Below are positions 17,371 through 64,000 of a DNA stretch of 64,000 nucleotides, in pieces. Source of the stretch: a virus (lineage: Duplodnaviria > Caudoviricetes); IMG/VR virus record IMGVR_UViG_3300030943_000011, positions 1,739-65,738 of that record; one strand, given 5' to 3'. The notes below the pieces were generated by a model. That model did no database searches, was not told the origin of the DNA, and saw nothing but the letters and a program-made list of their open reading frames with translations. Made by a program: the position numbers and the translations under genes. Within the stretch, counting starts at the first letter, position 1, and the number at the start of each line of letters is the position of its first letter.

Positions 17371-17559
17371 ATGAATAGTGATAAAAGAGAATTCAACATG
17401 TTTAAAGGCGATGGATTTCCCCTAATCGCGATTACTCCTGAACGCAATTCGAAATGCAAGTGTGGAAGCGGCAAAAAAACAAAAAATTGCTGTGGAGTTA
17501 AAACACAGGTTTTCTCTACGAAGACCGAAAGGGTAACCAAGCGTAAAAAGAAACCATGA
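17371..17559 (+). CDS. SEC-C motif small protein
   Basis: RNSKCKCGSGKKTKNCC matches SEC-C zinc-binding motif. Confidence 0.8.
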   Translation: MNSDKREFNMFKGDGFPLIAITPERNSKCKCGSGKKTKNCCGVKTQVFSTKTERVTKRKKKP

Positions 17560-38197: not shown

Positions 38198-41100
38198 ATG
38201 GCACAATCATACGACCGACGAATAAACCTGTACATCAACATTGATGGCAAAGATGTGAAAAACGATGTGGCCAGCATCAAGGCTGAAATGAACAAAATTG
38301 TCAACGCACAAGCCCGCATGACAATTGGCTCGAAAGAATACCAGGCACAAGCTGAAAAAATAAAACATCTTAAAGGCATACTCGACCAGCACCGTCAGGA
38401 TATCACCAGCATCGACAAATCATGGTCGCTGGGCAAAATGGGCGATTCGTTTAACCGCTATTTCTCTTTGATTACGGCGGGTATGGCTTCATTGGTAGGT
38501 TTGGCATTGTCTGTTCGCCAGGTTGTTCAGTCATTTAACGACTTCGAAGAACGCCTCGATAACCTATCGGCTTTAACGGGTTTATCAGGCGAAGATCTCG
38601 ATTGGTTAGGACAGAAAGCAAAAGATCTCTCCACTGCAACGCTCGAAAGTGGAATCCGGGTAACCTATGGAGCGCAGCAAATTGTCGATGCCTTTACCAA
38701 AACCGGATCGGCCCGGCCCGAGCTGCTAAAAAATAAAGAAGCATTGGTCGCAGTAACCACCGAAGCCATCATTTTAGCCAGCGCTGCAAAAATAGAGCTT
38801 CAGCCAGCCATCGAAGGGTTGACCATGGTAATGAACCAGTACAACGTTTCGGCCACTGAAGCCCGTCGCATTATCAATACACTGGGAGCTGGATCCAAAG
38901 AAGGTGCCGGAGAAATTCCTTACCTTACCGTTGGTTTTGAGAAAGTAGGTACCGTTGCTTCTCAGGCCGGATTATCCATCGAAACACTTGTTGCTGCTCT
39001 CGAAACCCTTGCGCCTCGAATGACTCAGCCCGAAATTGCAGGGCGCGGATTAAAAGGCGTATTGCTTGCGCTTCAGGCCGGAGCCGACGATACCAACCCT
39101 AAGATTGTTGGTTTTTCGAATGCGATAGAAAATCTGGCGAAAAAGAACCTGACGGTGACCGAATCAATGGCATTATTTGGTTCCGAAAATATTACCTGCG
39201 CCAATACTCTAACGGCCAACGTCAAGGAATTGAAATACTATGAGCAAGCAGTAACCGACACCAATGTAGCCATCGAACAGGCCGCTATTAATACCGACAA
39301 CAACAATTCGAAACTGGCCCAGGCAAAAAACAGGCTGAACCTGATGAGCATCGAACTGGGTGAAAAGCTTGCACCGGCGCTTACCATTAGCACCAGTGGC
39401 TTATCTTATTTTATTAAGGCAATGAGTATCATGGCCAATTTTGTAAGTCAGAATAAAGTTTTGCTTGTAACATTACTTGTATCTTTAATTGCTTATGGAT
39501 CGGCTATAAGAATAGCCACAATAATGGAAGCGGGTTTAAACCGGGAAAAGGGAATAGGACTGGTTATTACAAAGTTGAGTATTTTCTGGAACAGAGCAGC
39601 CAGTAGCGCAATGCTGTTGTATCAGGCTGCGGTTGCATTACTAACAGGTAATATTACCAGAGCGACACGTGCAATGCAGCTATTTTGGGCATTCTCTGCA
39701 TTAAATCCTGTGGGTTTGATTACTGCAGCAGTTGTAGGATTAGGAGCGGCATTGTATTTTCTTTCCGGAAGGCTCACCGCAGCACAAAAAGCGCAAAAAA
39801 TGCTCAACGACATGAACGTGGAAGCCCAGAAAAATATCGTTGAAGAAAAAATTAAGCTTGAAACATTAATGGATTTGGCCCGCGACGAAAAGCTTTCGAA
39901 AATGGATCGGCTGAAAGCCATTATGCAACTCAATGCCATTTCGCCCAAATATCTCGGAGGCTTAACCCTCGAAAATATTAATACCAAAGCTGCAACCGAA
40001 TCAACAAAAGCTTATACCGAATCACTTTTACATAATGCCCGTGCTCAGGCAGCCAAAGAAAAAATAATAGAGATAGATAAACAACTGCTCGATTTGCAAG
40101 CTGGAAATATAGAAAATATATCATTTTTAGATAAAGCAAGAGTTAGATTGGCAGAAGGGTTTAAGCATGACTATAGTGCAGAAAAGGCTAATACACTAAT
40201 AGCTGCCAAGGCAATTGAAGATTTAACTAAACAAAAAGAAAAGTTGGTTGGCATCGCTAAAGAGCAGGCTGTGGCCGATTTATTAACCGGTGGAGGTGGT
40301 GGCGATCCTATCAATACCGATTTAATCAGAGCCAAAGAACTGGAGCTTGAACTGGCAAATAAAATGCCGCGTTCAACTGAAGCCGAAATAGTGGCAAGGA
40401 ATAAAGCCATCGAAACTATTCAAAAAGAAATCGACCGGCTCAATGCCCTGGGAACCGTAAAAGAAGGTGCTGCAGGCGAAGAGCAAGCTAAACGTGACGA
40501 GAAAGCCATTAAAAAGAAAATGGACTTTGAAGAAGCCGCGCATAACGACGAGATGAGCCGCATTAACCGCGAACATCTCGATGGTAAAACTACCGACGAT
40601 CAGTACAAAGCCGATTTGCTTGATGAAGACCTAAAGTTTCTGGCTAAAAAGTTGACTATTTATAAGGTTGGAAGCAAGGAATATAAAGCCGCTTACAACG
40701 AATCACTGCAGAAACAGGTCGATGCGCAGAAAGTAGTTCAGGATTTACTCCTAAAAGCTCAAAAAGGACTGGCCGATGCCGGTATCGAAAATCTTAAGGA
40801 TGGAATTAACAAAGAAAAAGCTCTTCAGGAGCAACGCTTTAAAGAAGAAATTGACGCCCTGAAAAAACAGTTGCTAGAGAAGGCCGTTCTGTCCGATCAG
40901 GAGATTGCCCTTAACGATACCATCAACCAAACTATTGAACAGAAAAAAATAACGCACCTAAAAGCAATGGCCGATCTGGATAAGGCCGGTGCTTTGCAAA
41001 AACAGATGGATGCTGCAATTATCGATCAGGCTAAAGCAGCAACAGACGAGGAAAAATATGCAGCCGAACGCGAGCTGGCACAGGCGCAATACGATCAGGA

Positions 41101-41899
41101 CATTCAGGACGCCAACGGTAATGCCGCAAAAATAGCCCAGGCCGAACGTGGTCTTTCTGATCGACTGATACAGATTAAGCTCGACGAACTGGATAGGCGG
41201 CAACAAATAGGCGATGCTGTTTTTGGCGCTGCAAATACTTTATTTGGTGCATTGGTCGATTTGGCCGGGAAAGAAACCGCATTGGGCAAAGCGTTATTCC
41301 TGTTTCAACAGACCGCCGCCATCGGACAAATCATTTTTAATACCGGTATCGCTAATGCAAAAGCCCTTGCCGCATCGCCTTTAACGTTTGGCCAACCATG
41401 GGTGACAATTAATACAATAACCGGAGCGGCCAGTATTGCTGCTGTGGTCGCTCAATCAATTGCCGGTTTTTCTGGTGGTGGTTACACCGGATCTGGAAAC
41501 AAAAATGAAGTGGCCGGTCAGGTACATAAAGACGAATATGTAGTACCGTCGAAAGTTTTAAATTCTCCGCTCGGAGCCGCATTGGTAGCTAACCTCGAAG
41601 ACATGCGAACCAATCCGGTAATGGTTACCCAGGCAGCAGTTCAGGCCAGCCGTAGCAACCGGAACTCAGGTTGCGATGCGTCAGCGGCTATGGTGGTCAA
41701 TCCATCGCCAAATACTCCGATCGATTCTGGAGCCGCTTCCCACGATTCCGAGCTAACTAACGCCATAAACAACATGTCGCGGGCAGTGGCTATCCTGGTT
41801 AAAAATGGCGTTCAGTTTCCGATCGTGCCATTTAAAAAGCAATTGGACGAAATCTCCGACCTGATCGATCAGACCGGCATGGGAGGATTTAAAAAATAG
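38198..41899 (+). CDS. Tail tape measure protein (TP901-type core)
   Basis: 1233 aa Ala/Leu-rich coiled coil, hydrophobic NPVG segment, C-terminal FSGGGYTG...AGQVHKDEYVVP. Confidence 0.92.
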   Translation: MAQSYDRRINLYINIDGKDVKNDVASIKAEMNKIVNAQARMTIGSKEYQAQAEKIKHLKGILDQHRQDITSIDKSWSLGKMGDSFNRYFSLITAGMASLVGLALSVRQVVQSFNDFEERLDNLSALTGLSGEDLDWLGQKAKDLSTATLESGIRVTYGAQQIVDAFTKTGSARPELLKNKEALVAVTTEAIILASAAKIELQPAIEGLTMVMNQYNVSATEARRIINTLGAGSKEGAGEIPYLTVGFEKVGTVASQAGLSIETLVAALETLAPRMTQPEIAGRGLKGVLLALQAGADDTNPKIVGFSNAIENLAKKNLTVTESMALFGSENITCANTLTANVKELKYYEQAVTDTNVAIEQAAINTDNNNSKLAQAKNRLNLMSIELGEKLAPALTISTSGLSYFIKAMSIMANFVSQNKVLLVTLLVSLIAYGSAIRIATIMEAGLNREKGIGLVITKLSIFWNRAASSAMLLYQAAVALLTGNITRATRAMQLFWAFSALNPVGLITAAVVGLGAALYFLSGRLTAAQKAQKMLNDMNVEAQKNIVEEKIKLETLMDLARDEKLSKMDRLKAIMQLNAISPKYLGGLTLENINTKAATESTKAYTESLLHNARAQAAKEKIIEIDKQLLDLQAGNIENISFLDKARVRLAEGFKHDYSAEKANTLIAAKAIEDLTKQKEKLVGIAKEQAVADLLTGGGGGDPINTDLIRAKELELELANKMPRSTEAEIVARNKAIETIQKEIDRLNALGTVKEGAAGEEQAKRDEKAIKKKMDFEEAAHNDEMSRINREHLDGKTTDDQYKADLLDEDLKFLAKKLTIYKVGSKEYKAAYNESLQKQVDAQKVVQDLLLKAQKGLADAGIENLKDGINKEKALQEQRFKEEIDALKKQLLEKAVLSDQEIALNDTINQTIEQKKITHLKAMADLDKAGALQKQMDAAIIDQAKAATDEEKYAAERELAQAQYDQDIQDANGNAAKIAQAERGLSDRLIQIKLDELDRRQQIGDAVFGAANTLFGALVDLAGKETALGKALFLFQQTAAIGQIIFNTGIANAKALAASPLTFGQPWVTINTITGAASIAAVVAQSIAGFSGGGYTGSGNKNEVAGQVHKDEYVVPSKVLNSPLGAALVANLEDMRTNPVMVTQAAVQASRSNRNSGCDASAAMVVNPSPNTPIDSGAASHDSELTNAINNMSRAVAILVKNGVQFPIVPFKKQLDEISDLIDQTGMGGFKK

Positions 41900-41966
41900 A
41901 AGTACCCTAGTCCGAGCGCGACCATAAGTCGCCACCGGAGTTTTCTTCCATCTTCCGCACTATTTC

Positions 41967-42002
41967 TGTCCTTTCTCCCGGCTGCGGTCTCCTTTATCTT
42001 CG
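41967..42002 (+). promoter_or_regulatory. Late promoter motif copy 6
   Basis: TGTCCTTTC-N19-TATCTTCG. Confidence 0.8.
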
Positions 42003-42026
42003 GTTCAGTAATTCAATCCTTCAGTC

Positions 42027-43238
42027 ATGATAGATTTTAGCATATACGGTGGTATCGTTCAGCTTTCGGGCAACAAAGTCGAAATTGAAGTATCCAACGA
42101 CGACATCAAAGGCGAATCGCCCCGCGCGATGCTTAAAGCAACCAGTACCGATGGCGCAGTTCCCGGTGGCCCGTTCGAAGATGCAAGAGAATGGCGACCA
42201 TTAACCCCAACTGTTGAAGGATCCGGGAAAGCCATCTTCGACTTTCAGGAATACCTCGACGCTCCAACCGATTATAATTTCACCTTTCCTTATGGCGCCA
42301 CTTATGCCGTGAAACATCCGCTTCGTGCGTTCGATATCGATATCCTTGCAGGCGCGAGTTATATCGACAACGATGTTGAAAGCGCAACTTACGGCCAGAA
42401 AATTACAGCATGGCAGGAAGCTGCCGAAGCAGTCTCTATCCGGATACTGAAGGGAGGAATGAGCCAGTACCGTCAGGCACAATACAACGAAGACGCCACC
42501 GATTTTTATCACGATTGGATCCTTGCAAACAAATACCTGACACACCGGCCAAACAACCAGAAAGTATCGTACAATCAGCCGATAAGGTTGTGGTACTTGC
42601 TACCTGGCGAAACGCAGGTAACACGTGCGCTCTATATTTTTTACACTTGTGCAGACGGGTCTAACGGCGCTACAATGCGCATGGTTACATTAGATCCAGA
42701 CGGGCTTTACGAATTCATACTCGACCCTGCATTGTGGGAACTGCCAGCAAATACAGTACAGTTCGGTTTCTTGCAGATGGAAAACCTGACAATTATTGGC
42801 GAAACGCGGGTTTTCATTATCGATCCGCAATTCTACTCCGAGAATAACACCTTTCTGTTTTTTGCCAACTCGCTGGCCGGCATCGACGATGTGTGGTTTA
42901 CCGGAGCAGTTAAGTTACTGGTCAACTCCGAAGCCGAAACCGGAATTCAGCAGCTCGACCGCAATGCCACTACCCGCGACCGCTCAGTAATAGAAACAAA
43001 CTCAACCGGATCGCGAAAATGGTCCATATTTCCGGGCAATCGGTTAAGTGTGGCCGAAATTGAAGACTTGCAGGATTTCATTTATTCGCGGTTTCGTTGG
43101 TTGGTTTGGAACGGAAAGATCGTGCCGGTAAACCTTGAGCGTGGCGAATTTGAACTGACAAATACCATACGCGACCTGGTCATTAACGACGAACTGGAGT
43201 TCGTATTTGTAGAAGCCCACTCAAATAATCACTATTAA
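42027..43238 (+). CDS. Distal tail/baseplate protein
   Basis: Follows tape measure; FANSLAGIDDVWFTG C-terminal domain. Confidence 0.6.
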   Translation: MIDFSIYGGIVQLSGNKVEIEVSNDDIKGESPRAMLKATSTDGAVPGGPFEDAREWRPLTPTVEGSGKAIFDFQEYLDAPTDYNFTFPYGATYAVKHPLRAFDIDILAGASYIDNDVESATYGQKITAWQEAAEAVSIRILKGGMSQYRQAQYNEDATDFYHDWILANKYLTHRPNNQKVSYNQPIRLWYLLPGETQVTRALYIFYTCADGSNGATMRMVTLDPDGLYEFILDPALWELPANTVQFGFLQMENLTIIGETRVFIIDPQFYSENNTFLFFANSLAGIDDVWFTGAVKLLVNSEAETGIQQLDRNATTRDRSVIETNSTGSRKWSIFPGNRLSVAEIEDLQDFIYSRFRWLVWNGKIVPVNLERGEFELTNTIRDLVINDELEFVFVEAHSNNHY

Positions 43239-43239
43239 A

Positions 43240-43938
43240 ATGAGCGTCATCGATAAGCTTCTAAAGAGCATTCGCGGGGTAGGCAAAGGCAACCCGATTA
43301 CCTATATGCAGCTTTCCGCTATCATCAGGGCGCTGTGGAGCGAAACACATGACAACAATGTGATTGAAAATATTGCACAGGTTGCGCATGGTTTTACAGT
43401 TGGACAAACGGTAAGGCAAAATGGAGAAGGCGCATGGGAATTAGCGCAAGCTGATGCTTTTGGCGTAATGGCAATCGTTTGCAGGGTTGTGACAGCAGAT
43501 ATTTTTTGGATTAGAACCGGTGGATTGCTCCCAGGCGAATACACTATCGCCGCTAAGTATTTTCAGTCAATAGTAACTTCTGGCGCATTAATGATGCAAA
43601 CCGATCCCGAAGTATGGGAAGCGGGGCAATACTGGCAATTTATCGGAACCGGATCGGATAAAGGTTTACTGATCGAAATTGCAGAACCAACCATTATAAG
43701 TGAAATTGCCATCGGAGAAGTGAAAGAAGTTGATCTAATTGGGGTTGTAGATGGCGAAAACAAAAATTATTCAACACCAGTTGCTTATCAACCTGGAAGT
43801 ATATCAGTTTTTTTAAACGGACAAAAATTAAACAAGGACGATTATACAGAGACAAGCGATACAACGGTAACGCTTGTAGACGCTCCTAAAAATACAATGT
43901 TTACAGATGTAGTTTCGGCAATTATAACACTTAAATAG
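43240..43938 (+). CDS. Tail-associated protein
   Basis: AHGFTVGQ..WELAQAD and VFLNGQ..DDYTE modules. Confidence 0.6.
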   Translation: MSVIDKLLKSIRGVGKGNPITYMQLSAIIRALWSETHDNNVIENIAQVAHGFTVGQTVRQNGEGAWELAQADAFGVMAIVCRVVTADIFWIRTGGLLPGEYTIAAKYFQSIVTSGALMMQTDPEVWEAGQYWQFIGTGSDKGLLIEIAEPTIISEIAIGEVKEVDLIGVVDGENKNYSTPVAYQPGSISVFLNGQKLNKDDYTETSDTTVTLVDAPKNTMFTDVVSAIITLK

Positions 43939-43945
43939 TAAAGTC

Positions 43946-44914
43946 ATGACACCATTTAGAAGTAGTACGCAATTAAAGATTGATGAAAATCTGAATTATA
44001 ACGGGAAAAAGGGAGTTAGTTTGGCTGATGGGGTTGATGCTCAGGACGCGGTAACGGTTAACCAGTTGAACAATGCTGTTATGTCAGGATCAACATCAAT
44101 ACATGCACCTGTTGCCGACTTAGCGGCTTCAAAGGCTGTTGTTGCAGCCGCAAGAGCAGATAGGATGCTGATGCTCATAGAAACAATTGGCTTATATGCA
44201 TTCGATGCTCAAAGTACGATAGCCAGTAACGATGACTCGGTAATAAGACCTACTGATATCGCTTCAGATGCTTCAGCCGGAAGGTGGATTCGACTTTCAA
44301 GTAATATTACTGATATTGTGGCAATCTTAAATAATGCTGCAGCTATCACAGTTATTGCCGATGCCGATAAAATGAACGTACTGGTATCGGGGGTGATCAA
44401 AAATGTCACATGGGCTTATATAAAATCAATCCTTAAAACTTATTTCGACGACCTGTACAACAAGTATGTTCACCCAAATCATTCTGGAGATGTTACTTCG
44501 GTTGCTGACGGAGCGCAAACAATTGCAGCCAATGCAGTCACAAACGCAAAGGCAGCACAGATGGCTACTAAAACATATAAAGGTCGTACAAGTGCCGGAA
44601 CAGGAAATGCAGAAGATGTTTCGGTTGCTACGTTAAAAACTGATTTAGGGATGCGTACAAGATACTACAGGCAATCTCTTACTGGTGCTATAACCGGGTC
44701 AAATACAGTATTTACAATCATCGCAAATATAGTTTCAGGCTCAGAAGAACTATTTTTGAACGGTCAACTTCAGGATGCCAATGCCGGGGTCGATTATACG
44801 ATCAGCTACGGAGCTACTACTACAGTAACGTTTGCAACTGCCCCTAAATCAGTGGTTGTCGATGGCGTTACTTATACCGACAAAATATTAATGAGTTATG
44901 ACGTTTTAAACTAA
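43946..44914 (+). CDS. Tail fibre-like protein
   Basis: LADGVDAQDAVTVNQL stalk motif, YVHPNHSGDVT, LFLNGQLQ...DYT. Confidence 0.65.
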   Translation: MTPFRSSTQLKIDENLNYNGKKGVSLADGVDAQDAVTVNQLNNAVMSGSTSIHAPVADLAASKAVVAAARADRMLMLIETIGLYAFDAQSTIASNDDSVIRPTDIASDASAGRWIRLSSNITDIVAILNNAAAITVIADADKMNVLVSGVIKNVTWAYIKSILKTYFDDLYNKYVHPNHSGDVTSVADGAQTIAANAVTNAKAAQMATKTYKGRTSAGTGNAEDVSVATLKTDLGMRTRYYRQSLTGAITGSNTVFTIIANIVSGSEELFLNGQLQDANAGVDYTISYGATTTVTFATAPKSVVVDGVTYTDKILMSYDVLN

Positions 44915-44918
44915 TCAC

Positions 44919-46307
44919 ATGAAAACAAATATTAAGATTTTAGTTGTTGTAGTAATTTTTCTGTTAATGGGTGCAACTGGAACGCTTATCAGGTACGATC
45001 AACTTGTTCCGATAAAGGCTATTCAAATTCTAAATACACCAGCCGGCACGATAAGTTCAACCAACGTTCAGGCAGCGATTGATGAGTTAAACAGTGAAAA
45101 AGAAAGTTCTTTGGGTAATCCTTCAGTAACTGGATATGTTCTTTCATCAACAACAGGAGGATCCAGATCGTGGATTGCTCCGTCAGGTGGAGCAGATGGG
45201 AATAATTATCCTACATCATTAGGGTTTTCGGGTGGAACATTATCATTAGGTAGAAGCGGATTATCTGATTTGACAACTTCGTTGGATGGAAGATACTTGA
45301 CTTCTTATAATGAAACTGACCCAAACATATCTACATGGGCGAGAGCATCAGTTAAACCGAGTTATTCTTATTCTGAAATAGGAAGCCCGCCCACTGCATT
45401 GAGTTCGTTCACAAACGATTTAGGAAATTACGGAAGTTTTGTAACTGGAACTCCGTGGACGTCTATGGGATATTTAACATCTCAAACATCCCATGCAGAT
45501 GTTGTTGTTGATGGTGATTTCACATCTCAAGGAATAATTCTTCGAGGTGCGACATCAGGAACATATTCGATTTTAACAAATAATTCTTCAAATTGGGATG
45601 ACGCTTACAGTAAGATGGGTAAAGTTAATATAGGTGGTTCGTATTTAGTTTTATCGTCTGGCGAATTCTTTGATAATACTTTTGGAACTGGAGTAATGAT
45701 TAAAGATGCTAATCCGACTTCTGGAAGCACAAAACCAGTTCAGTCAGGAGGGGTTTATACAGCATTATCGGGGAAAGCTGCTTTAGCTGGTTCAGCATCT
45801 CAGGCTTTTAGTGCAAGTGAGTTTGATTTACCAAATGGGTGGGTGGTGAATGACCATGATGGCATTTTTAGGTTTTATTATAGTGGCCAAGATAGGGCAT
45901 ATATTGACGGAAGCGGGAACATGGCACTTGACGGTTCTATAACTTCCATTGAGGGATATCGGGGGTCATCAGATATTCGGTTAAAGAAAAATATTAAGCC
46001 AATTGAAAGAAATGTTTCTGCGATAAACCTATGCCAATTTGAAATGAAAAGCGATAGCACTAAACGGATACACTATGGTGCAATTGCTCAGGAGGTAGAA
46101 AAGATTGCCCCGGAATTGGTTTATGAAGATGGAAATGGCATGAAATCAGTTGCATATATCGAACTTCTTGTTCTTAAGGTAGCTCAGCTAGAGAAAGAAG
46201 TTAAATCGAATAAGCAAATACCTGTTATTCCTTCATGGATATGGGCGTGCCTGTTTTCGTTAATAACATTGAATGTTATATTGATAATAAATAATTTAAG
46301 GAAATGA
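44919..46307 (+). CDS. Tail fibre-like protein with peptidase S74 intramolecular chaperone domain
   Basis: SSDIRLKKNI...GAIAQEVEKIAPELV...VAY; hydrophobic N- and C-termini. Confidence 0.8.
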   Translation: MKTNIKILVVVVIFLLMGATGTLIRYDQLVPIKAIQILNTPAGTISSTNVQAAIDELNSEKESSLGNPSVTGYVLSSTTGGSRSWIAPSGGADGNNYPTSLGFSGGTLSLGRSGLSDLTTSLDGRYLTSYNETDPNISTWARASVKPSYSYSEIGSPPTALSSFTNDLGNYGSFVTGTPWTSMGYLTSQTSHADVVVDGDFTSQGIILRGATSGTYSILTNNSSNWDDAYSKMGKVNIGGSYLVLSSGEFFDNTFGTGVMIKDANPTSGSTKPVQSGGVYTALSGKAALAGSASQAFSASEFDLPNGWVVNDHDGIFRFYYSGQDRAYIDGSGNMALDGSITSIEGYRGSSDIRLKKNIKPIERNVSAINLCQFEMKSDSTKRIHYGAIAQEVEKIAPELVYEDGNGMKSVAYIELLVLKVAQLEKEVKSNKQIPVIPSWIWACLFSLITLNVILIINNLRK

Positions 46308-47905
46308 AAAGACTAATTTTATTAACCGTTTTATTGACATTAACAATTTGGTCTTTCGGGCAGACAAACAGCTATGTGACCGAATATTATCTTGCCAATA
46401 CATTCACTCCCAAATCGGGCATAACTCCCGGCTCAAATAATACGCTTTGGATGGATTGCGATCAGATAACTGCACGATATAATGTCACTATTTCAGGGAT
46501 CACAACAACGGGAAATCGGTTGCCATCACAAAACCAATTATCGAATGCGGCAACTGCCCCTACTTATATAGCCGGAGGTCGTAATTATGTTATTGGTTGC
46601 GGGTCATCTGGTGCTATAACCGGATCAAATGCAATAACTGTTGGTACGCTTTTTCTCAGTTATTCGGGTACTACATCAACCTCATATACGACCTATGCTA
46701 TTGAGTCAATCAATAATAATTCGGACGGGGACGGCAATAACTTTTTAACCCTTAAACTGAACGGAACGATCGTTACCGGTGCAACAAATGTTGCGATTAC
46801 CGGATTAGCTACAGGCGCAAACTCCGGATTAACACTCGAATGGAATGATACATCAGGAGCATTGCGTAATGATATTGCGACTCAGAAGTTATCTATTACC
46901 TATCATATTGTCGATTCAAACGGATTATCAGGTGCAACGCAAACGGATTATATCGGTTTGGTTGGATATTATCAGGCATGGGTTTCATTAACCAATGTTG
47001 CAACAACTCATGCTACAATTACCGCTACTGTTTATGGAACGAATATAACAGACTCCGGTATTTATTGGGGACAGATATCTGGAACGTTGCCAAATAAAGT
47101 TTCATCAGGATCAACCACTTCAGGCGCAGCAATAGCTACAAACATAACTGGCTTATGGAACTCAAGCTTATACTATTATAAACTTTATGTTGTTGTTGAT
47201 GGTGGTGCGATTGAATATATTGATGGTACGCAAAGATCATTTATTACACAAGTTCAGTCAGATCTATACACAACAGCGTCGTCGCCATCATGGGTAGCAC
47301 AAACAGGAGTTACAAGCATAACTGTTGAAGCATGGGGCGGTGGTGGTTCTGGTGGTCCTGCAACGGGTACCTCTTCACGTGGTGGCGGTGGTTCTGGTGG
47401 TTCGTATTCTAAAAAAATAGTATCAGTAACGCCTGGCAATACTTATACTGTCTCGATCGGAGCAGGTGCAGTTGCAAACATCACAACAAAAGTAGATGGT
47501 GCAGCTACTAATTTTGGGTCTGGACTTGTGATTGCAAATGGAGGCATAGGGGGTGCATCGACTTCCGGAACTGCCGGAACTGGTGCAACCGGTGTTACAA
47601 CCGGTTCAGTAGGAACTACAATTTACAAAGGTGGTAATGGTGGAAATGGAACGGCTTCCGGATCGTCAGGTGGTGGTGGTTCCGGTGCTGGAAGTACTGG
47701 CGCGGGAAATAATGGATCTTCAGGAACTGCCGGTGCTGCAAAATCAGATAATGGAGGAGCAGGTGGAACAGGAGTAACTACTGCCAATACTTATAACAAC
47801 GGAGGCTCTTATGGTGGTGGTGGTTCTGGTGGATTATCCAACTCATCAACCGATCGCAAAGGTGGAAATGGTGGTGACGGGTATTTAAGAATAACATATC
47901 CATAA
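46304..47905 (+). CDS. Glycine-rich tail/adhesin-like protein with signal peptide
   Basis: VEAWGGGGSGG...GGDGYLRITY glycine-rich domain. Confidence 0.7.
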   Translation: MKRLILLTVLLTLTIWSFGQTNSYVTEYYLANTFTPKSGITPGSNNTLWMDCDQITARYNVTISGITTTGNRLPSQNQLSNAATAPTYIAGGRNYVIGCGSSGAITGSNAITVGTLFLSYSGTTSTSYTTYAIESINNNSDGDGNNFLTLKLNGTIVTGATNVAITGLATGANSGLTLEWNDTSGALRNDIATQKLSITYHIVDSNGLSGATQTDYIGLVGYYQAWVSLTNVATTHATITATVYGTNITDSGIYWGQISGTLPNKVSSGSTTSGAAIATNITGLWNSSLYYYKLYVVVDGGAIEYIDGTQRSFITQVQSDLYTTASSPSWVAQTGVTSITVEAWGGGGSGGPATGTSSRGGGGSGGSYSKKIVSVTPGNTYTVSIGAGAVANITTKVDGAATNFGSGLVIANGGIGGASTSGTAGTGATGVTTGSVGTTIYKGGNGGNGTASGSSGGGGSGAGSTGAGNNGSSGTAGAAKSDNGGAGGTGVTTANTYNNGGSYGGGGSGGLSNSSTDRKGGNGGDGYLRITYP

Positions 47906-47914
47906 ATAATAACC

Positions 47915-50695
47915 ATGTACACACTCACAATTGGTAACAACCAGCTAATTCTCGATAGCGATTTTTCGCCATCGTTAACCTATAAAAATCCGGCATGGTG
48001 TTTTGGAGAGCTTCCCGGTCCGTTGTGTCTCGATGTAACTATTCCTGATAACGACATCAACCGAAACTATCTGGGGTTTCCCGGTCGTTTTGCTAAAGTG
48101 GCAAAAAAGAACGACCGAAAATTCCCGAAAGCCGAACTTCGTTGGAATGGCTACTTATATATTTATGGAACGCTTGTTATCACTAAAACCGACGAAAAAA
48201 GATATTCAGGCTATATACAAAGCGAACTTCGTAGCCTTAGCGATGCACAACAGGAGAAATTAATTGGCAACCACAATCTATTGGGCGAATTGACTTTTGT
48301 AAACAAAACAAATTACGATCCTGCGACAGATAATTACTGCACCATAAGGCTAAGTAACGATGGGTTCTGGACTGATAAGGGCGAACAGGAAACTGTCGAC
48401 AATGAAACACGCAGCGTGTTAACCCGCAAATTTCGCGATACTGTCGAGTCGGTTGTGAATGCCACCACGATCGATGGTGTAAAAGTATCAGCTGCTGATA
48501 GTGAGGTGGTGGTGGTAAGCCCCTTCCCGTTTTTGCATAAATTAATCGAGCTTCTTCTTCGCGAAAACAAATTATTCGTGCGAAACGATTTTCTCCGGGG
48601 CGATGCCGATTTGAAAACACTTTGCCTTTATCACAATGTCTCAATATGCGAACCAACATCTGTACTTCTGCCAGTTGAAACATGGTATTATTTTGATTAT
48701 TTTGATAATGATGGCAATGCGGTAATTAATAATTATAAAATCGATTCAGTTATCGAAACCCAAACATGGGAAACAGCCAATTTTAAACTTAAAAAGTTGT
48801 TGCCAAAAATGAAGCTTAACGAATTAATACTTTCGATACAGAACCTCACAAACAGTTTTTACCATTTTTCAGGCATCGACGACGTGGATAACATTGACCG
48901 CGAAAGCCTGTTTGACATGACACCATTCGATCTGTCGAAATACCGTATTAGCCGCTGGTTACCCGGCACCCGTCAAAACCTTTGCCTAAAGTTTAAATTC
49001 TCGCACGACTCCGACGACCAGATATTTAACGAGAACTTTACCGATATCAGTTCGCGCGAAGACGACATAAAAGAAGCAGTACAAACCTATCCTGATTTGC
49101 TCTTAATTACCGGAATGAAAATTGGCAACATTCGCCTGGTAATTGCCGAAAAAAAATACTACGAATACCGGCAGGAAACCATCGAAGACGAAGCAGGCAA
49201 ATCGAAAAATGTAATAATATGGGCCATTCTAACAGTCGATATTCAGGACTATAAATATAACCCTACCGGCGACGAATCAGAAAATATAGAAACTATGTTT
49301 TCGACACTGCTGATGAAATTGGACGGACAGCCAATCGCTTTACAGAAAGGAAACAACAGCCAGTTTTCACAATATACCGAGAATTTCAGTCCGCGCCTGC
49401 TGTTTTACAATGGCAATAATACTGGAGGATCAACATCCAGCTCCGGCTTGTCGATCGACTGGAAAAGTCTGGTTGCTACCCGTTACCGGCGTACTGCCCC
49501 GTTTTATGCAAATGCTTTACCGATTGAAGCCGATTTTAGGTTTCCAGGAAATATTTTATATAAAGTGCTGAACGAAATTTATAAACCTTACCTCGATCGT
49601 GACGGATCGTTTTTCATTAAGGAATTGCAGATTAGTTCAGCCACATCGGAGTTTGTGAATGCCACATTAACCGTATTCAAAAACGAAGACAATGTATTTG
49701 AGTCCACAGCTGATACAGTTACCGGAGGTGGCGAACATTTCGGTAACTTGTTTACCCCAATGTTTATCGGCGTTACCGAAAACGGCTGGCCAATCCTGAT
49801 CAATGCGCAGGGAATTCCTCGCCCGATGCCCGATTATGGCAACCTGTCTACCGTAACGTTTGCAAACAAAACATGTGTCGAATACAATGCAGCCTACAAA
49901 CAGCTTTTTGTGGGTGGAAATAATGGCCAGTTGCATGTTTGCGACTTAAGTGACATGGAAAACCTGAGATACAAAACTATCCAGGTGTTTGCCGGAACCG
50001 ACGAAATTTCAGCCGTGGCTATCTGCAATAACATTCTTTTTATTGGTCGTGCCTGCTCTCCTCCAATTGCGTATGTGGTGCCTATGCATGCAAATTTCGA
50101 CGACTATGCAAACGGGGCTATCCAGTTGGCGCCGTTCAATTCATCAAGCGACTTTATCCGTTCGTTTATGTATGCAGATGGATGGTATTATGCCTGCAAT
50201 ACCGGTGGCGAATTGTTCCGAAGCGAAAACGGAACGGTTGAATGGGCCGAAGTTTTTGATACACATTCAGAATACATCAAAATCGGTCTGACAGCATCTC
50301 GAATATGGCTGGTAGAGTTGAACGAGGACCTGATGTATTCGCTCCGGAGCGATCCAACGCATTTTAACCGATTTGGAGGACTGGCAGGCGATCCGCTTCA
50401 GCATGTCCGCGATTTGCAACCGCTATTGAATGATCAGATTCTATACCTATGCGACGATGATGCAGCCTGTATATTCAAGATCGATCCGGGTGTGTCGAAT
50501 GCGAACATCACACCAAACGGAATCAAGAGTGCCGGTGGCGCTTGTTTCGATGGCACAAAGTATGCCTATATCAGCGTGAAGGATTGGGGAGGCTATACTA
50601 AAATTGCTACTTACAACGACAATGTTGTTGGTGCTGAAGTTATCTGGAGTTACCTGAATGTTCAGGCATTCTTCAGCAAATTGTTTTTGTACTAA
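47915..50695 (+). CDS. Tail tip/hub protein with probable C-terminal beta-propeller
   Basis: 926 aa, last gene of tail module, PRLLFYNG segment. Confidence 0.6.
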   Translation: MYTLTIGNNQLILDSDFSPSLTYKNPAWCFGELPGPLCLDVTIPDNDINRNYLGFPGRFAKVAKKNDRKFPKAELRWNGYLYIYGTLVITKTDEKRYSGYIQSELRSLSDAQQEKLIGNHNLLGELTFVNKTNYDPATDNYCTIRLSNDGFWTDKGEQETVDNETRSVLTRKFRDTVESVVNATTIDGVKVSAADSEVVVVSPFPFLHKLIELLLRENKLFVRNDFLRGDADLKTLCLYHNVSICEPTSVLLPVETWYYFDYFDNDGNAVINNYKIDSVIETQTWETANFKLKKLLPKMKLNELILSIQNLTNSFYHFSGIDDVDNIDRESLFDMTPFDLSKYRISRWLPGTRQNLCLKFKFSHDSDDQIFNENFTDISSREDDIKEAVQTYPDLLLITGMKIGNIRLVIAEKKYYEYRQETIEDEAGKSKNVIIWAILTVDIQDYKYNPTGDESENIETMFSTLLMKLDGQPIALQKGNNSQFSQYTENFSPRLLFYNGNNTGGSTSSSGLSIDWKSLVATRYRRTAPFYANALPIEADFRFPGNILYKVLNEIYKPYLDRDGSFFIKELQISSATSEFVNATLTVFKNEDNVFESTADTVTGGGEHFGNLFTPMFIGVTENGWPILINAQGIPRPMPDYGNLSTVTFANKTCVEYNAAYKQLFVGGNNGQLHVCDLSDMENLRYKTIQVFAGTDEISAVAICNNILFIGRACSPPIAYVVPMHANFDDYANGAIQLAPFNSSSDFIRSFMYADGWYYACNTGGELFRSENGTVEWAEVFDTHSEYIKIGLTASRIWLVELNEDLMYSLRSDPTHFNRFGGLAGDPLQHVRDLQPLLNDQILYLCDDDAACIFKIDPGVSNANITPNGIKSAGGACFDGTKYAYISVKDWGGYTKIATYNDNVVGAEVIWSYLNVQAFFSKLFLY

Positions 50696-50721
50696 AAGTC
50701 ACCTTCCCTCCATTTTAATAC

Positions 50722-53464: not shown

Positions 53465-54724
53465 TTATATACAAAATTCAAATTCTTCCAAAACAATAGT
53501 ACAGGCAAATCCGGGTGGATCAGGAAACTTAGTTCGCACATGTTCCGACCGCTCCCCGAAATGCCTGCGGATATACCGGTAGGTTGAAGCAATATCGGTA
53601 TGACCCAGTTGATTCATTATCTCGACGATAGTAGCGCCACTCTCAAGTAATTTTCCGGCGCCGGTATGTTTGAATGAATACCACTTGTACAAATCGGTTA
53701 ATCCAAGCTGCTCCCGATACTTATTAAACCGGGTCCTCAATGTATTGTACCCGATTGAAAATTTACCCGGACGTCCAAACCGGCTGATTAGGTACATATC
53801 CTTTCCATAGTGAATTACGCCCTGTTCAACCAGTATTTTGTACATCTGAGCCGGAATATCAACCGTTCGTTCTTTCCGTTTTTTGGCTACGTTTTTAGGT
53901 ATATGTATCGTTCGTGCCGACATATTTACCTGATTAAGTTTAAGCTTAAGCAATTCGTCACCTGGCCGGATGAAACAAAAATACTGGAGCATGGCGCCAA
54001 GAAACAGTTGGGGATCTTCAGCCCTGATCATTGGAAGTATCAATTCTAAATCTTCATCCAGAAATGGAATAGCTGAGAAATCCTCACCAGGTTCCGGAAT
54101 TCCAATTCTACCCACCGGACTCTCATTGATTACTTTGCGATCGATAAGATAAGCCCAGAAGCCATCGAGCGTAATTTTATATTTTTCAACTGTTGGACCT
54201 GCCAGATGACGATCAATAATCAAGTGATCGAAAAATCTAAGAATCAGATCATGATTATATGTTGAAAGGTCATTGTCAACCAATTTTTCACGCTCGAGCC
54301 ATGACACAAACTCCCGGAGTTTACCGCGATAACTTTCGTAAGTTTTTTTTGCTTTGATGCTTTTCTGAAGGGTGACATATTCGGAGGCATAGAACCTGAC
54401 GTTCTTATTTGCCTGTCGCTTACGACCGTATACCTGAGCAGCTGTGTGATACTCCAGATCATCGACATATACCACCTGAACTGAGGAGTCATCTGTAGGA
54501 TTCCATCCCTTCAGCAGTTTTGCAGTGAGGTTATTGATTAACTCTTCACCAAACTTATACCGATCCTTTTTTGTACGGATTTGGGCAAAACCTTCCTGAT
54601 ATCGTTTCCGCACCATTTTATCAGTTCGCGGATCACGATAGCCAATCTCAACCCACCAGGGTTTTGAAAGGTCGCCGCCCTGATCAAACAGGCGCGGCGC
54701 CCTGAACAATTTCTGTCGTCTCAT
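53465..54724 (-). CDS. Phage integrase (lysogeny tyrosine recombinase)
   Basis: FIRPGDEL, AKKRK, YSFKHTGA, QLGHTD..TYRY; N-terminal arm-binding region; likely start ATG 54724. Confidence 0.9.
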   Translation of the reverse strand: MRRQKLFRAPRLFDQGGDLSKPWWVEIGYRDPRTDKMVRKRYQEGFAQIRTKKDRYKFGEELINNLTAKLLKGWNPTDDSSVQVVYVDDLEYHTAAQVYGRKRQANKNVRFYASEYVTLQKSIKAKKTYESYRGKLREFVSWLEREKLVDNDLSTYNHDLILRFFDHLIIDRHLAGPTVEKYKITLDGFWAYLIDRKVINESPVGRIGIPEPGEDFSAIPFLDEDLELILPMIRAEDPQLFLGAMLQYFCFIRPGDELLKLKLNQVNMSARTIHIPKNVAKKRKERTVDIPAQMYKILVEQGVIHYGKDMYLISRFGRPGKFSIGYNTLRTRFNKYREQLGLTDLYKWYSFKHTGAGKLLESGATIVEIMNQLGHTDIASTYRYIRRHFGERSEHVRTKFPDPPGFACTIVLEEFEFCI

Positions 54725-54763
54725 AATGTCTGAATAAAGTTCGTCCCCACGCCCAAAAAACAA

Positions 54764-54980
54764 ACACATACATAACGACATACATTTTCTTTAACGCTGA
54801 CATACACTTTTTAAACCTTAAAGCGTTGAAAATCAGCTATCTTATAAAACATCGTGGAGCTGGCGGGAGATTCAAAAACCCTTTAACCACTTCATCCTGA
54901 TGTTCTTGAAAATCGTATTATGTGTATGTTGCAAGTTTTGGTTGTATTCGTGAGTGTAGCTATAATATAATGTGTATGTC
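54764..54980. other. attP: tmRNA 3'-end core with flanking arm-type repeats
   Basis: 54854-54869 reverse complement CTCCCGCCAGCTCCAC matches typical ssrA 3' end; (G)ACATACA(C/T) copies on left, TGTGTATGT(T/C) on right. Confidence 0.75.
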
Positions 54981-63357: not shown

Positions 63358-63834
63358 ATGGAATTAACACTTAAAAAAACAACAGCAAAAAAGCTCTATC
63401 CTGAAGCTCCAGCGTGGTTTCAGAAAGTATTGATCGAAACTTTTGGAGAAGATTACTTCAAAAAAAGAGAATTCACCGACATCAAAACCTTTGCGGATGC
63501 CTGCGAAGAATGTGGAATTACTGAAGAAGAGTTTGATTATCGTTTTGCCGCACTTGGTCTGGATGATGATACAATTAACTATGAAAAGCTAAAGATTGTA
63601 GTGAAAGCAATTAACCAGGGCTGGAATCCCGACTGGAGTAATTCCGATCAATACAAATACTGGCCATATTTCAATCTGTCTTCCGGTTTCGGTTTTTCGC
63701 GCTCGGCTTACTGCTGCGCTTACGCGATTACGGCTGTCGGCTCTCGCCTTTGCACTGATACCTCAGAGAAGGCTGAGTATATAGCCGAACAGTTCCAGGA
63801 AGAGTACAAGGAATACTTGCTGTATTCAGAATAA
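63358..63834 (+). CDS. DGR target protein
   Basis: Contains VR ending in VGSRLC (CLec-type G.RL motif). Confidence 0.85.
   Translation: MELTLKKTTAKKLYPEAPAWFQKVLIETFGEDYFKKREFTDIKTFADACEECGITEEEFDYRFAALGLDDDTINYEKLKIVVKAINQGWNPDWSNSDQYKYWPYFNLSSGFGFSRSAYCCAYAITAVGSRLCTDTSEKAEYIAEQFQEEYKEYLLYSE
63675..63753 (+). repeat. DGR variable repeat (VR)
   Basis: 79 bp ungapped match to 63867-63945. Confidence 0.92.
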
Positions 63835-63866
63835 TAAAAAAGGTTGTACGCTGCGTTGCTGTTAGT

Positions 63867-63945
63867 TCTGTCTTCCAGTTTCAGTTTTTCGAACTCGAAT
63901 TACAACTACGATAACACGAATACGAATGTCAGCTCTCACCTATGC
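63867..63945 (+). repeat. DGR template repeat (TR)
   Basis: AAC/AAT-rich; all 18 differences from VR are at TR adenines. Confidence 0.92.
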
Positions 63946-64000
63946 GATTACTGGCAGCGTAGACCTTGCCAACAGTGCAATAAATAAACTCATTTAAATG

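Follow-up and report, generated by a model that had tools for sequence, protein, structure and literature searches.

Results

The 64,000-nucleotide stretch of phage DNA analysed here (the window) is confirmed to carry the target gene and repeat pair of a genuine diversity-generating retroelement (DGR) of the adenine-mutagenic type, belonging to a temperate phage of Bacteroidota; with the genes found past the window end the element is complete. The element is almost certainly of a functional type. Its target is a 158-aa protein encoded in the early region of the genome, and the best overall explanation, whose chances we regard as about even, is that the DGR diversifies an intracellular variable binder. 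To our knowledge, DGRs are the sole natural system of targeted protein hypermutation in prokaryotes, and we know of phage DGRs almost solely as diversifiers of tail fibres.

A repeat pair that differs only at template adenines

A repeat search of the window returned a single pair of 79-nt direct repeats, at 63675-63753 and 63867-63945, with 77% identity. Base-by-base comparison showed that the copies are mismatched at 18 of the 79 positions, each of which has an A in the downstream copy, the template repeat (TR; 63867..63945). The TR contains 22 adenines, 18 changed and 4 kept in the variable repeat (VR; 63675..63753), and the non-A positions are the same in both copies at 57 out of 57. If 18 mismatches were placed at random, the probability that all would fall on the 22 A positions is 2.7e-14. 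The original prediction of a 79-bp VR/TR pair with 18 mismatches, all at TR adenines, is thus borne out. By codon position, the mismatches number nine at the first, eight at the second and one at the third. These and the other features of the element in the window all lie on the plus strand.

The VR is internal to the target gene (63358..63834), running from codon 106/107 to codon 132 of the 158-aa ORF, and its 3′ end is 26 codons ahead of the stop codon, as had been claimed. Translation of the TR in the frame of the VR gives LSSSFSFSNSNYNYDNTNTNVSSHLC, in which AAY codons occupy six places (residues 115, 117, 119, 122, 124 and 126). By the codon table, no substitution at any TR adenine can create a stop codon in the VR. 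The six AAY-templated positions make up the hypervariable core (63700..63735, codons 115-126); in an alignment of 109 family sequences their columns have entropies of 3.21-3.59 bits and are among the seven most variable of the 158 columns. The TR starts 33 nt past the target stop codon. It is overlapped by a 47-aa ORF (63844-63987), which we regard as incidental.

The whole genome was scanned on both strands with the non-A positions of the TR. No further VR was found, in agreement with the earlier observation that none is seen in the tail genes. The other matches of the scan were a copy of the TR at the opposite end of the contig (contig positions 22-100), which is there because the contig ends overlap, and one chance match of 13/15 in a 30-nt sub-window.

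A possible DNA hairpin or cruciform (63737..63788) takes in the GC-rich 3′ end of the VR together with ~35 nt beyond it. Its DNA fold has an energy of -12.6 kcal/mol (z -3.59), and the structure is a candidate for a cis element, of the IMH/downstream hairpin kind, that would act in cDNA homing. The equivalent stretches of relatives gave z <= -1.9 in only 3 of 18 cases, and a stem of the GCCTTT/AAAGGC type is present in 6 of 9 RT-proximal stretches.

The reverse transcriptase, spacer RNA and accessory gene

The window end is the end of the contig, and it overlaps the contig start, contig 1-142 being the same as contig 65584-65725 at 140 of 142 positions. Three relatives (L002, L004 and L007) each have one continuous stretch that covers both contig ends. 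Through this terminal overlap a reverse transcriptase (RT) ORF of 316 aa, at contig 208-1158, lies just past the window end, its start 107 nt from the TR across the overlapping ends. This is where the RT had been predicted, just past position 64000, both RT and Avd having been placed outside the window. Over its final 13 nt the window departs from the contig start and agrees with the spacer variant found in L007; since the spacer variants differ between the two contig ends, the assembly contains a strain mixture.

The RT matched RVT_1 (6e-18) and phrog_1423 (6e-128), and keeps the DGR motifs. IGNYLSQ, at residues 181-187, does not vary among related RTs (40 of 40 in the alignment), and the protein also has YADD; (I/V/L)GxxxSQ in RT domain 4 is given as a motif of DGR-clade RTs in the available text of PMC3521204. 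The order of the element is target with internal VR, TR, structured spacer RNA, RT and a beta-barrel gene, and the order VR-in-target, TR, RT on one strand was also found in relatives.

The first part of the TR-to-RT spacer, corresponding to the 3′ region of the DGR RNA, lies in the window (63946..64000) and holds a first small conserved hairpin; the main covarying helix is beyond the window end, at contig about 150-195. In an alignment of 45 spacers (A2), 12 pairs were predicted, with compensatory changes in 11, and 95% of the cells were paired, compared with 82% in shuffles and 34-49% when the partners were slid. Of 11 related loci, two matched Rfam RT-17 at the gathering score. In the phage itself, RT-14 matched contig 88-192 with 28.2 bits, under its gathering score of 48.1.

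No match to the Avd family (PF05635) was obtained at E <= 1 in the whole 65.7-kb record, and the small neighbouring ORFs had no Pfam matches. According to the available text of a survey of DGRs, avd is present in about 74% of curated elements and about a quarter are without it (PMC5758913). As Avd-less DGRs are known, the missing Avd does not exclude the element from the DGRs. A conserved gene for a 101-aa beta-barrel protein lies 3′ of the RT, and a homologue directly follows the RT in 116 of 170 related loci and in 10 of 13 annotated ones. The model of this protein has a pLDDT of 90.4, and structural comparison ranked OB-fold nucleic-acid binders highest, with Z from 6.2 to about 4. Because these matches are weak (best Z 6.2, none >= 8), the OB fold is taken as a lead only. 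Foldseek with the same model returned nothing at E <= 0.001, and the sole PADLOC match was a weak one (0.0058) to PDC-M70B. Complex prediction for the RT (alignment A4) and the beta-barrel protein (A3) gave a score of 0.00 in two runs without controls, which counts neither way. The protein may be a nucleic-acid-binding accessory factor that substitutes for Avd. A non-exhaustive literature search found no published account of the cassette type or of the beta-barrel gene.

The target protein and its genomic context

The target has a pI of 4.62 and no hydrophobic N-terminus, and no signal or membrane segment was detected along its 158 residues, in line with the predicted absence of a signal peptide. 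It had no match in Pfam, NCBIfam or PADLOC, and matched phrog_11581 (category: unknown function) at 3.6e-25. The AF2 model (pLDDT 82.7, below 50 in the VR loop 121-125) has a predicted layout of an N-terminal helical part, then a beta-hairpin and the VR loop, then two C-terminal helices. Foldseek of the model against the PDB gave no match at E <= 0.001 (best E 1.4), and VIA-align against 48,161 chains gave none with Z >= 5 (best Z 4.2). Seven matches at E <= 0.001 were obtained in BFVD, all to uncharacterised phage proteins, and the ESM Atlas returned unnamed viral clusters only. The family profile matched one designed protein among PDB sequences, at E 0.64, and nothing else. A C-type lectin fold had no entry in any fold-search list for the target, which is no proof of a different fold.

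In the window, the target gene follows genes for an anti-repressor, a DUF4406 protein, an HD phosphatase and a DUF5131 protein and precedes that for DnaG primase, so its placing among early genes in the original prediction stands. The tail genes are at about 38200-50700 (tape measure, fibre, S74 chaperone domain), and lysis, integrase and early genes set the target at 63358 apart from them. Outside the VR, the target had no match to tail families in Pfam or PHROGs. The flanks of 13 diverse relatives contain helicase, primase, methyltransferase, integrase, anti-repressor and recombination genes; the downstream flank reaches terminase, head or connector genes in 4 of the 13, and a tail-fibre family was found in the flanks of none.

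As to the second diversification engine originally suggested for this phage, the genome has three tyrosine recombinases, and no convincing inverted repeats were found around the tail-fibre genes. The inverted repeats around the recombinase at 35350-36237 are weak (78-86%, 22-23 nt), and the recombinase at 11863-12693 has none of >= 22 nt around it.

A large target family and its cassettes

The target family is very large and unstudied. It comprises 4,359 clusters at 50% identity, with members typically of 120-160 aa. A hydrophobic N-terminal stretch or lipobox was present in 0 of 109 members, and 98 of the 109 have a pI <6. Informative fusions were absent from the best 150 of the 4,359 matches, all of 119-353 aa; ten longer proteins (300-346 aa) are apparently tandem duplications. 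One member occurs without a DGR, in a phage of 299 kb that has terminal repeats, a completeness rating of 100% and no RVT_1 match.

An RT lies downstream in 123 of 164 related loci. Among these 123 cassettes, 100 have two VRs, eight have one, eight have three, one has four and six have none by the filter used, which required >= 80% of mismatches to be at A. Over 236 VRs, 3,434 of 3,521 mismatches are at A positions, a share that arises partly by construction because of that filter. The VR ends 20-28 codons ahead of the stop in at least 223 of the 236. Target length depends on place, with a median of 135 aa for RT-proximal and 154 aa for distal proteins. The carriers are temperate phages and prophages of Bacteroidota, and they differ in large-terminase family (phrog_15 vs phrog_9). 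Searches of species-representative genomes gave 99 matches, the nearest in Prolixibacteraceae assemblies; strains of Maribellus, Flavobacterium and Dyadobacter are among the cultured isolates that were hit.

Comparison of near-identical relatives indicates that the cassette type is active in nature, since they differ almost only in their VRs. Loci L034, L035 and L036 are 99.4-99.8% identical over 4-6 kb, and 11/12, 24/25 and 13/13 of their pairwise differences are inside their three VRs, mostly at TR-A positions. There are 20 differences between L016 and L017; nine lie in a VR, each at a TR-A position. Metagenome contigs scanned with the target protein yielded six loci, none near-identical to the window. 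In four public runs (X1-X4), sequences break at the VR and several VR variants are present; these are contigs and not raw reads, and no listed piece spans the whole stretch. The variants are unassignable to the window phage because related phages with VRs of their own share the samples.

That the element is a relic, its VR/TR pair recording past activity of a DGR that no longer works, is very improbable. Such a reading could draw on the absence of Avd, on the unassignable variants in X1-X4, and on relatives L041 and L042, whose repeat pair has decayed to 4 of 10 mismatches at A. It runs against an intact RT ORF with SQ and YADD motifs, TR and VR non-A positions still the same throughout, a conserved spacer RNA helix and accessory gene, the near-identical relatives that vary almost solely in their VRs, and the quarter or so of curated DGRs that have no avd in the available text of the survey (PMC5758913).

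The single-target layout

Judged from its similarity to close relatives, the single target of the window looks like a fusion of two of their tandem paralogues. The segment that spans the N-terminal part and the VR (contig 65090-65491) shares 86.8% identity with paralogue 1 of L004, and the one that spans VR and TR (contig 65413-65733) shares 87.6% with paralogue 2 of that relative. The protein is also long for its RT-proximal position, and a long target there is atypical because proximal targets are typically short and distal ones long. The layout could be the product of a VR-VR deletion or of assembly collapse. If collapse, the true layout would be two tandem paralogues, the assembler having jumped from VR to VR; this is unlikely, and would alter the architecture only. 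The different spacer variants at the two contig ends, and the presence in the same samples of related phages whose contigs break at the VR, are consistent with it. Against it, the exact 158-aa protein is found on six recorded contigs and the reading frame is unbroken across the junction. Other assemblies (L102, L118, L119 and L132) also contain cassettes with a single VR, placed about 300 nt ahead of the RT, and two of these have long targets of 150 and 159 aa. If the layout is real, it would have arisen by homologous VR-VR deletion.

Discussion

Proposed role of the target

In mutagenic retrohoming, as the available text of the survey describes it, the TR RNA is reverse-transcribed with random nucleotides opposite template adenines and the cDNA replaces the VR (PMC5758913). 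By this route the DGR of the window would re-draw up to about 3e12 peptide variants over residues 110-130, chiefly at the six AAY positions. The target would be made together with early, replication and lysogeny-proximal genes, and would act inside the infected or lysogenic cell. Its conserved helical part may serve as scaffold or effector, with recognition left to the hairpin and loop of the VR; the likeliest ligand would be a host protein that is polymorphic, or one encoded by a competing element. Judging by gene context and by the properties of the sequence, we lean towards a non-virion protein that acts intracellularly. Counter-defence or host takeover is the most likely role, and a role specifically in counter-defence is a more tentative proposal on the same grounds. 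A bolder version, which we consider doubtful, is that the cassette is a self-contained, mobile 'intracellular antibody' module, in which an OB-like factor stands in for Avd, the DGR keeps re-drawing the binding loop of one to four small, acidic, cytoplasmic proteins that provide an evolving library of inhibitors of polymorphic defences or rivals, and the scaffold of roughly 150 aa is a new minimal VR-display fold distinct from the C-type lectin.

The main competing explanation is that the target is a small virion adhesin or receptor-binding accessory, its helical part docked on the tail or capsid and its VR facing outward, serving host-range switching as in BPP-1. It draws on homologues in two cultured phages. 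In PV4-TP1 one TR feeds both a 439-aa tail protein and a member of the target family, and in phage Versailles too one TR serves a tail protein and a family member; the Versailles homologue is labelled 'tail protein' in GenBank, via HHpred against PHROGs. The VR peptide of the target ends in ...GSRL, as does the VR of the Mtd_N-like tail protein of PV4-TP1. As one PV4-TP1 TR serves both proteins and the VR peptide is Mtd-like, a virion receptor-binding role keeps some weight. The cassette adjoins head, connector, terminase or packaging genes in four of the 13 annotated relatives, and virion proteins normally have no signal peptide, so that its absence from the target is compatible with such a role. 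On the other hand, only the VR segment of about 40 aa is common to the two PV4-TP1 proteins, and a common VR segment could by itself explain the 'tail protein' label. The end of the target VR and the VR of the Mtd_N-like protein aligned over 25 residues only, with 7% probability, and outside the VR similarity to tail or capsid families is nil. A context of replication, recombination, methylase or lysogeny genes is found in the window, in 13 of 13 annotated relatives, at two DGR-less loci and in the two cultured phages, and at none of these loci is the gene beside tail-fibre families. Carriers with different terminase and structural modules are also hard to square with a conserved docking site. 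On this evidence a virion adhesin is unlikely.

A role in the lysogen, with the target acting as a variable sensor or decoy of the prophage against superinfecting phages (superinfection exclusion), is less probable still; it would be analogous to the DGR-diversified putative antigen sensors of multicellular bacteria. The carriage of the cassettes by temperate phages and prophages, with the 99 matches in species-representative genomes, would suit it, and several cassettes (L010, L074 and L076) are near the integrase and regulator region. A precedent exists in DGRs aimed at cytoplasmic conflict proteins, as far as the available text of PMC10907252 describes them. Proteins of 120-160 aa without an effector domain, and with no conserved effector neighbour in 13 loci, are difficult to reconcile with this role, as is the lack of any match to PADLOC defence models. 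The family member of the 299-kb phage, moreover, adjoins genes of the host-takeover type (QueE-like and ADP-ribosylglycohydrolase). The intracellular variable binder is thus retained as our preferred reading. The question is directly testable, since there are homologues in cultured inducible phages (PV4-TP1, Versailles and LoVEphage) and in prophages of cultured Bacteroidota. If the target is intracellular, the cassette would represent a phage-side adaptive repertoire for intracellular conflict, and a scaffold of roughly 150 aa would be of interest for DGR-based directed evolution.

Comparison with known systems

The DGR of Bordetella phage BPP-1 (mtd-avd-TR-brt) is the prototype of mutagenic retrohoming, and serves host-range switching. 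The window element resembles it in the adenine-only differences between TR and VR, the (I/V/L)GxxxSQ motif of the RT and the location of the TR just upstream of the RT. Further points in common are a TR rich in AAY codons, a VR whose 3′ end is GC-rich, and a VR peptide that closes with a motif of the G-x-R-L type, as in Mtd-like proteins. The BPP-1 target is the tip of the tail fibre, whereas that of the window is a 158-aa early-region protein with an internal VR followed by 26 codons. BPP-1 has avd, in place of which the window element has the beta-barrel gene 3′ of its RT. Unlike BPP-1, the relatives of the window diversify two to four tandem paralogues.

Among the Avd-less DGRs of the survey by Wu et al. 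(2018), whose available text distinguishes Architecture A (TR-RT without accessory genes), Lineage 3 and Architecture E with 'CH1' (PMC5758913), the likeness lies in the lack of avd and the TR-RT core. CH1 is described there as a protein of 160-169 aa, acidic (pI 4.7 +/- 0.2), without motifs and found only in DGRs without avd, HRDC and MSL (PMC5758913). The description fits the target (158 aa, pI 4.62), the comparison being one of descriptions only. As the small acidic protein of the window bears the VR itself, it is a target and not an accessory protein such as CH1. The target clusters of Roux 2021, or the CH1 or VR classes of Wu 2018, may already contain the target family.

Dore et al. (2024) described DGR-diversified cytoplasmic conflict proteins, putative antigen sensors, of multicellular bacteria (PMC10907252). 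To the extent of the available text, these systems share with the window a DGR aimed at a protein without an export signal, read as intracellular variable recognition. Their proteins are cellular, large and multi-domain with effector modules, whereas the window target is phage-borne, about 150 aa long and without a recognisable effector domain.

A further likeness is to phages of Bacteroides and Phocaeicola. Profile comparison shows the second, remote DGR target of cultured phages of these hosts to be homologous with the target family. With hhalign, gp58 of PV4-TP1 matched the family profile over its full length (155 columns, 99.2% probability, E 8e-20). The gene for gp58 contains a remote VR of the PV4-TP1 DGR, whose 17 mismatches are all at TR adenines; in the VR of the Versailles homologue, 15 of 16 are. 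The gp58 gene lies among methyltransferase, tRNA ligase and recombination genes. With a genome of 72 kb and an RT that is split over three frames, PV4-TP1 itself appears to be Quimby-like. In the available text of two reports, on a few gut phages, the remote second target of Quimbyvirus/LoVEphage-like Bacteroides phages lies among defence or counter-defence genes, and a role in phage-host conflict has already been proposed for it (PMC8008677, Benler et al. 2021; PMC12629997, Nature 2025).

The window phage and the Quimbyvirus/LoVEphage-like phages thus have in common one protein family and its non-structural gene context, and they differ in how the family is deployed. In the latter an Mtd-like tail protein, adjacent to the RT, is the primary target, and the small protein is a secondary one encoded far away. 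The window phage has the small protein as its sole target, directly upstream of TR and RT; no target of the Mtd-like kind was found. Identity between the RTs is only 33-43%, the Quimbyvirus/LoVEphage-like phages are without the beta-barrel gene, and the window clade is without the insertion of ~28 residues in the VR region of their targets. The window shows that the remote-target family is also the sole, RT-adjacent target of a very common cassette (123 among the 164 related loci), which is distinct in usually having tandem paralogues, in having no Avd, and in possessing an accessory gene and a structured RNA of its own.

Template and variable repeats

A repeat search of the region returned a single 79-nt direct repeat, with copies at 63675-63753 and 63867-63945 (both on the + strand) that are 77% identical. 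The upstream copy, the variable repeat (VR), lies within the 158-aa target ORF (63358-63834) and ends at codon 132, 26 codons ahead of the stop; the downstream copy is the template repeat (TR). Base-by-base comparison gave 18 mismatches, each with A in the TR. Eighteen of the 22 TR adenines were changed and four unchanged, and the non-A positions were identical at 57 out of 57. The chance that 18 random mismatches would all fall on TR adenines is 2.7e-14. Translation of the TR in the frame of the VR gives LSSSFSFSNSNYNYDNTNTNVSSHLC, with six AAY codons at target residues 115, 117, 119, 122, 124 and 126; adenine substitution cannot create a stop codon in this frame, and the ceiling on the VR repertoire is about 3e12 peptides. 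A genome-wide scan found no further VR. The original prediction had described this 79-bp pair, its 18 adenine mismatches, the end of the VR 26 codons before the stop of a 158-aa protein and the lack of a second VR in tail genes, and every countable detail of that description proved correct. Folded as DNA, the 3′ end of the VR gives a possible hairpin that is stable in the window's sequence (z -3.59), and not consistently so across 18 equivalent stretches from relatives.

Reverse transcriptase and closure of the genome

The virus record is 65,738 nt long and rated 100% complete, and the window covers bases 1739-65738. The record contains only one RVT_1 match, near its start, in a 316-aa ORF (contig 208-1158) carrying the motifs IGNYLSQ and YADD. 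Reverse transcriptases (RTs) of diversity-generating retroelements (DGRs) are defined by the motif (I/V/L)GxxxSQ in the text available from PMC3521204; IGNYLSQ occupies RT residues 181-187, and neither motif varied among related RTs (40 of 40). The first 142 nt of the contig recur at contig 65584-65725 (window 63846-63987) with 140 of 142 positions matching, and the TR is therefore found at both contig ends. In each of three close relatives (L002, L004 and L007) the two ends are joined in one unbroken stretch. The end repeat, together with these continuous stretches, indicates that the genome closes on itself and that the RT starts 107 nt past the TR, where an RT had been predicted to lie just beyond position 64000. 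No family match to Avd, the usual DGR accessory protein, was found in the genome.

The contig ends overlap for 142 nt with two mismatches and diverge beyond. The last 13 nt of the window (63988-64000) mismatch positions 143-155 of its own contig (L001) and fit L007's variant of the TR-RT spacer; at the contig start the variant is of L002 type. Two strain variants were therefore mixed in the assembly, a probable reason for the record's linear classification.

Accessory gene and spacer RNA

An ORF overlapping the RT stop (contig 1155-1460) encodes a 101-aa protein of phrog_19665. A homologue lies directly 3′ of the RT at 116 of 170 loci, and at 10 of the 13 loci annotated in detail. The protein is modelled as a small beta-barrel (pLDDT 90.4) whose best structural matches are OB-fold nucleic-acid binders, with a RuvBL2 domain at the top (Z 6.2) and SSB, PriB and editosome OB domains weaker (Z 5.5 to about 4); no match reached Z 8, and Foldseek returned none at E <= 0.001. 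Judged from this model, the protein is a candidate nucleic-acid-binding accessory factor.

The spacer between TR and RT contains a strongly covarying helix common to 45 aligned spacers, with compensatory changes in 11 of its 12 predicted pairs. The helix cells were paired in 95% of cases, versus 82% when shuffled and 34-49% with slid partners. Rfam RT-17 matched at its gathering score (40.4 bits) in two of 11 related loci, L029 7008-7095 and L048 7005-7085 (40.7 and 40.5 bits), and the window's own spacer matched RT-14 only, below threshold (28.2 bits against a gathering score of 48.1). These RT-associated motifs appear to be DGR spacer RNAs.

Distribution and activity of the cassette

Viral, metagenome and genome collections supplied 164 related loci, and an RT lay downstream on the same strand in 123. 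VRs were accepted at >=60 nt with >=7 mismatches, >=80% of them at A. Among the 123 loci, 100 had two VRs, eight had one, eight had three, one had four and six had none by this filter. Mismatches fell at TR adenines in 3,434 of 3,521 cases over 236 VRs, a proportion set partly by construction of the filter (>=80% at A). The VR ended 20-28 codons ahead of the stop in at least 223 of the 236, and median target length was 135 aa for RT-proximal and 154 aa for distal targets. On the 61-kb contig of L004, one TR serves four VRs, two adjoining the RT and two about 40 kb away. The latter pair are in extra VR-bearing paralogues (L079 5150-5926, same contig) downstream of counterparts to the RadC and N6-methylase region of the window's phage, which itself lacks a paralogue at that position.

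Three loci (L034, L035 and L036) share 99.4-99.8% identity over 4-6 kb, and the differences between them are concentrated in the three VRs (11 of 12, 24 of 25 and 13 of 13). This is direct evidence of cassette activity. A family member with 44% identity (L058 5992-6447) adjoins QueE-like radical SAM and ADP-ribosylglycohydrolase genes in a complete, jumbo-sized 299-kb phage with terminal repeats, in which no RVT_1 match was found, so that members of the family can occur without a DGR as well. This is one of two family loci without an RT, and both have neighbours of the kind described below for the 13 annotated relatives.

The target protein

The target had no match in Pfam, NCBIfam or PADLOC, and matched phrog_11581, a family of unknown function. 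Its pI is 4.62; 98 of 109 aligned family members are acidic, and none of the 109 has a hydrophobic N-terminal segment or lipobox. A word-based search yielded 203 relatives among 216 candidates, and an exhaustive profile search 4,359 clusters (50% identity) at E <= 0.001, with 2,704 at <= 1e-10. The best 150 of the 4,359 clusters were all 119-353 aa long, and the longer ones resemble tandem duplications. Across the 158 columns of the family alignment, the six templated by AAY codons have entropies of 3.21-3.59 bits and take six of the top seven places for variability. Residues G110, G112, G128 and R130 are nearly fixed (108, 103, 108 and 105 of 109 sequences) despite adenine-containing TR codons, a pattern indicative of selection acting on the scaffold. 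In the AF2 model (pLDDT 82.7), helices extend up to residue 86 and are followed by a beta-hairpin (100-119), a VR loop of low confidence and a pair of helices at the C-terminus; no solved structure matched it convincingly, and it may be a reduced C-type lectin fold.

The target gene looks like a fusion of two paralogues, because, from its 5′ part up to and including the VR, it shares 86.8% identity with L004 paralogue 1, and the stretch from VR through TR shares 87.6% with L004 paralogue 2. Such a fusion could reflect a real deletion between the two VRs or an assembler jump between them. The exact protein occurs on six contigs, and single-VR cassettes are present in other assemblies (L102, L118, L119 and L132), as expected of a deletion. 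A jump would be consistent with the strain mixture in the sample, with related phages in the same peat metagenome runs, and with public contigs that are broken exactly at the VR.

Genome context and likely role

This temperate phage has three tyrosine recombinase genes, at 11863-12693 (+), 35350-36237 (+) and 53465-54778 (-). Structural genes span about 13900-50700. The recombinase at 35350-36237 lies directly 3′ of a beta-helix (tail-spike-like) gene (33007-35016), with a CBM-like gene also there (32330-33007); this could suggest invertase-type switching, and the inverted repeats nearby are weak (22-23 nt, 78-86%). Among the head genes, 17556-19688 (+) encodes a 711-aa protein with a group-1 glycosyltransferase domain and a sub-threshold Stealth CR2-like region, which may glycosylate the host surface or virion. 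A 1,311-aa protein (580-4512, +) begins with all the parts of a DnaG-type primase N-terminus (zinc ribbon, catalytic core, Toprim and DnaB-binding domain). The remaining residues, about 880, matched no family clearly and gave only a weak EcoO109I-like hit.

The DGR forms the end of the early rightward block, with anti-repressor, DUF4406, HD phosphatase and DUF5131 genes upstream and a DnaG primase downstream. Helicase, primase, methyltransferase, integrase, anti-repressor and recombination genes flank the cassette in 13 diverse relatives. In four of these the flank on the downstream side extends as far as terminase, head or connector genes, and no tail-fibre family was found in the flanks of any of the 13. 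Terminase families differ among these cassette-carrying phages. The hosts are Bacteroidota, with nearest matches in Prolixibacteraceae assemblies (73-76% identity).

The DGR is real and of functional type, and the central point of the prediction, that it is aimed at a small early-region protein and not a tail fibre, holds. From the gene context, the lack of export signals, the occurrence of the cassette in phages of different virion types and the family members that lie in host-takeover neighbourhoods without a DGR, we infer an intracellular, counter-defence role. The alternative of a virion adhesin is less likely, and in its favour stands a VR peptide of tail-protein type.

Relation to known DGRs

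Phage DGR targets in large surveys are mostly tail proteins, with many unannotated, in the text available from PMC8144416. A tblastn search of GenBank phages with the target returned eight records, all temperate Bacteroides or Phocaeicola phages, with 25-29% identity along the greater part of the target, and an additional partial match at 45.5%. Gp58 of Phocaeicola phage PV4-TP1 (194 aa) aligns end to end with the target family profile (probability 99.2%, E 8e-20). It is a remote VR of the PV4-TP1 DGR, with 17 of 17 mismatches at TR adenines; for the remote VR of Bacteroides phage Versailles the count is 15 of 16. In phages of this type a 439-aa tail protein, Mtd_N-like, is the target next to the RT, whereas the small protein is the remote target, among methyltransferase, tRNA ligase and recombination genes; the tail protein and gp58 have only the VR segment of about 40 aa in common. 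The PV4-TP1 RT (L169 / L171 9165-10350) matches the window's RT as three successive pieces in different frames, an arrangement consistent with the frameshift reported in the RT of Quimbyvirus. Four induced gut prophage species are described, in the available part of PMC12629997, as having a second VR close to counter-defence genes.

The curated survey of Wu et al., in the portion available, includes avd-less DGR lineages and a small acidic accessory protein, CH1, of 160-169 aa and pI 4.7 (PMC5758913); by that published description, CH1 may be the target's family. In print, the family had figured only as a secondary target, and a puzzling one, of a few gut phages. The cassette described here is distinct, widespread and Avd-less, brings its own accessory gene and structured RNA, and has this family as its sole target.
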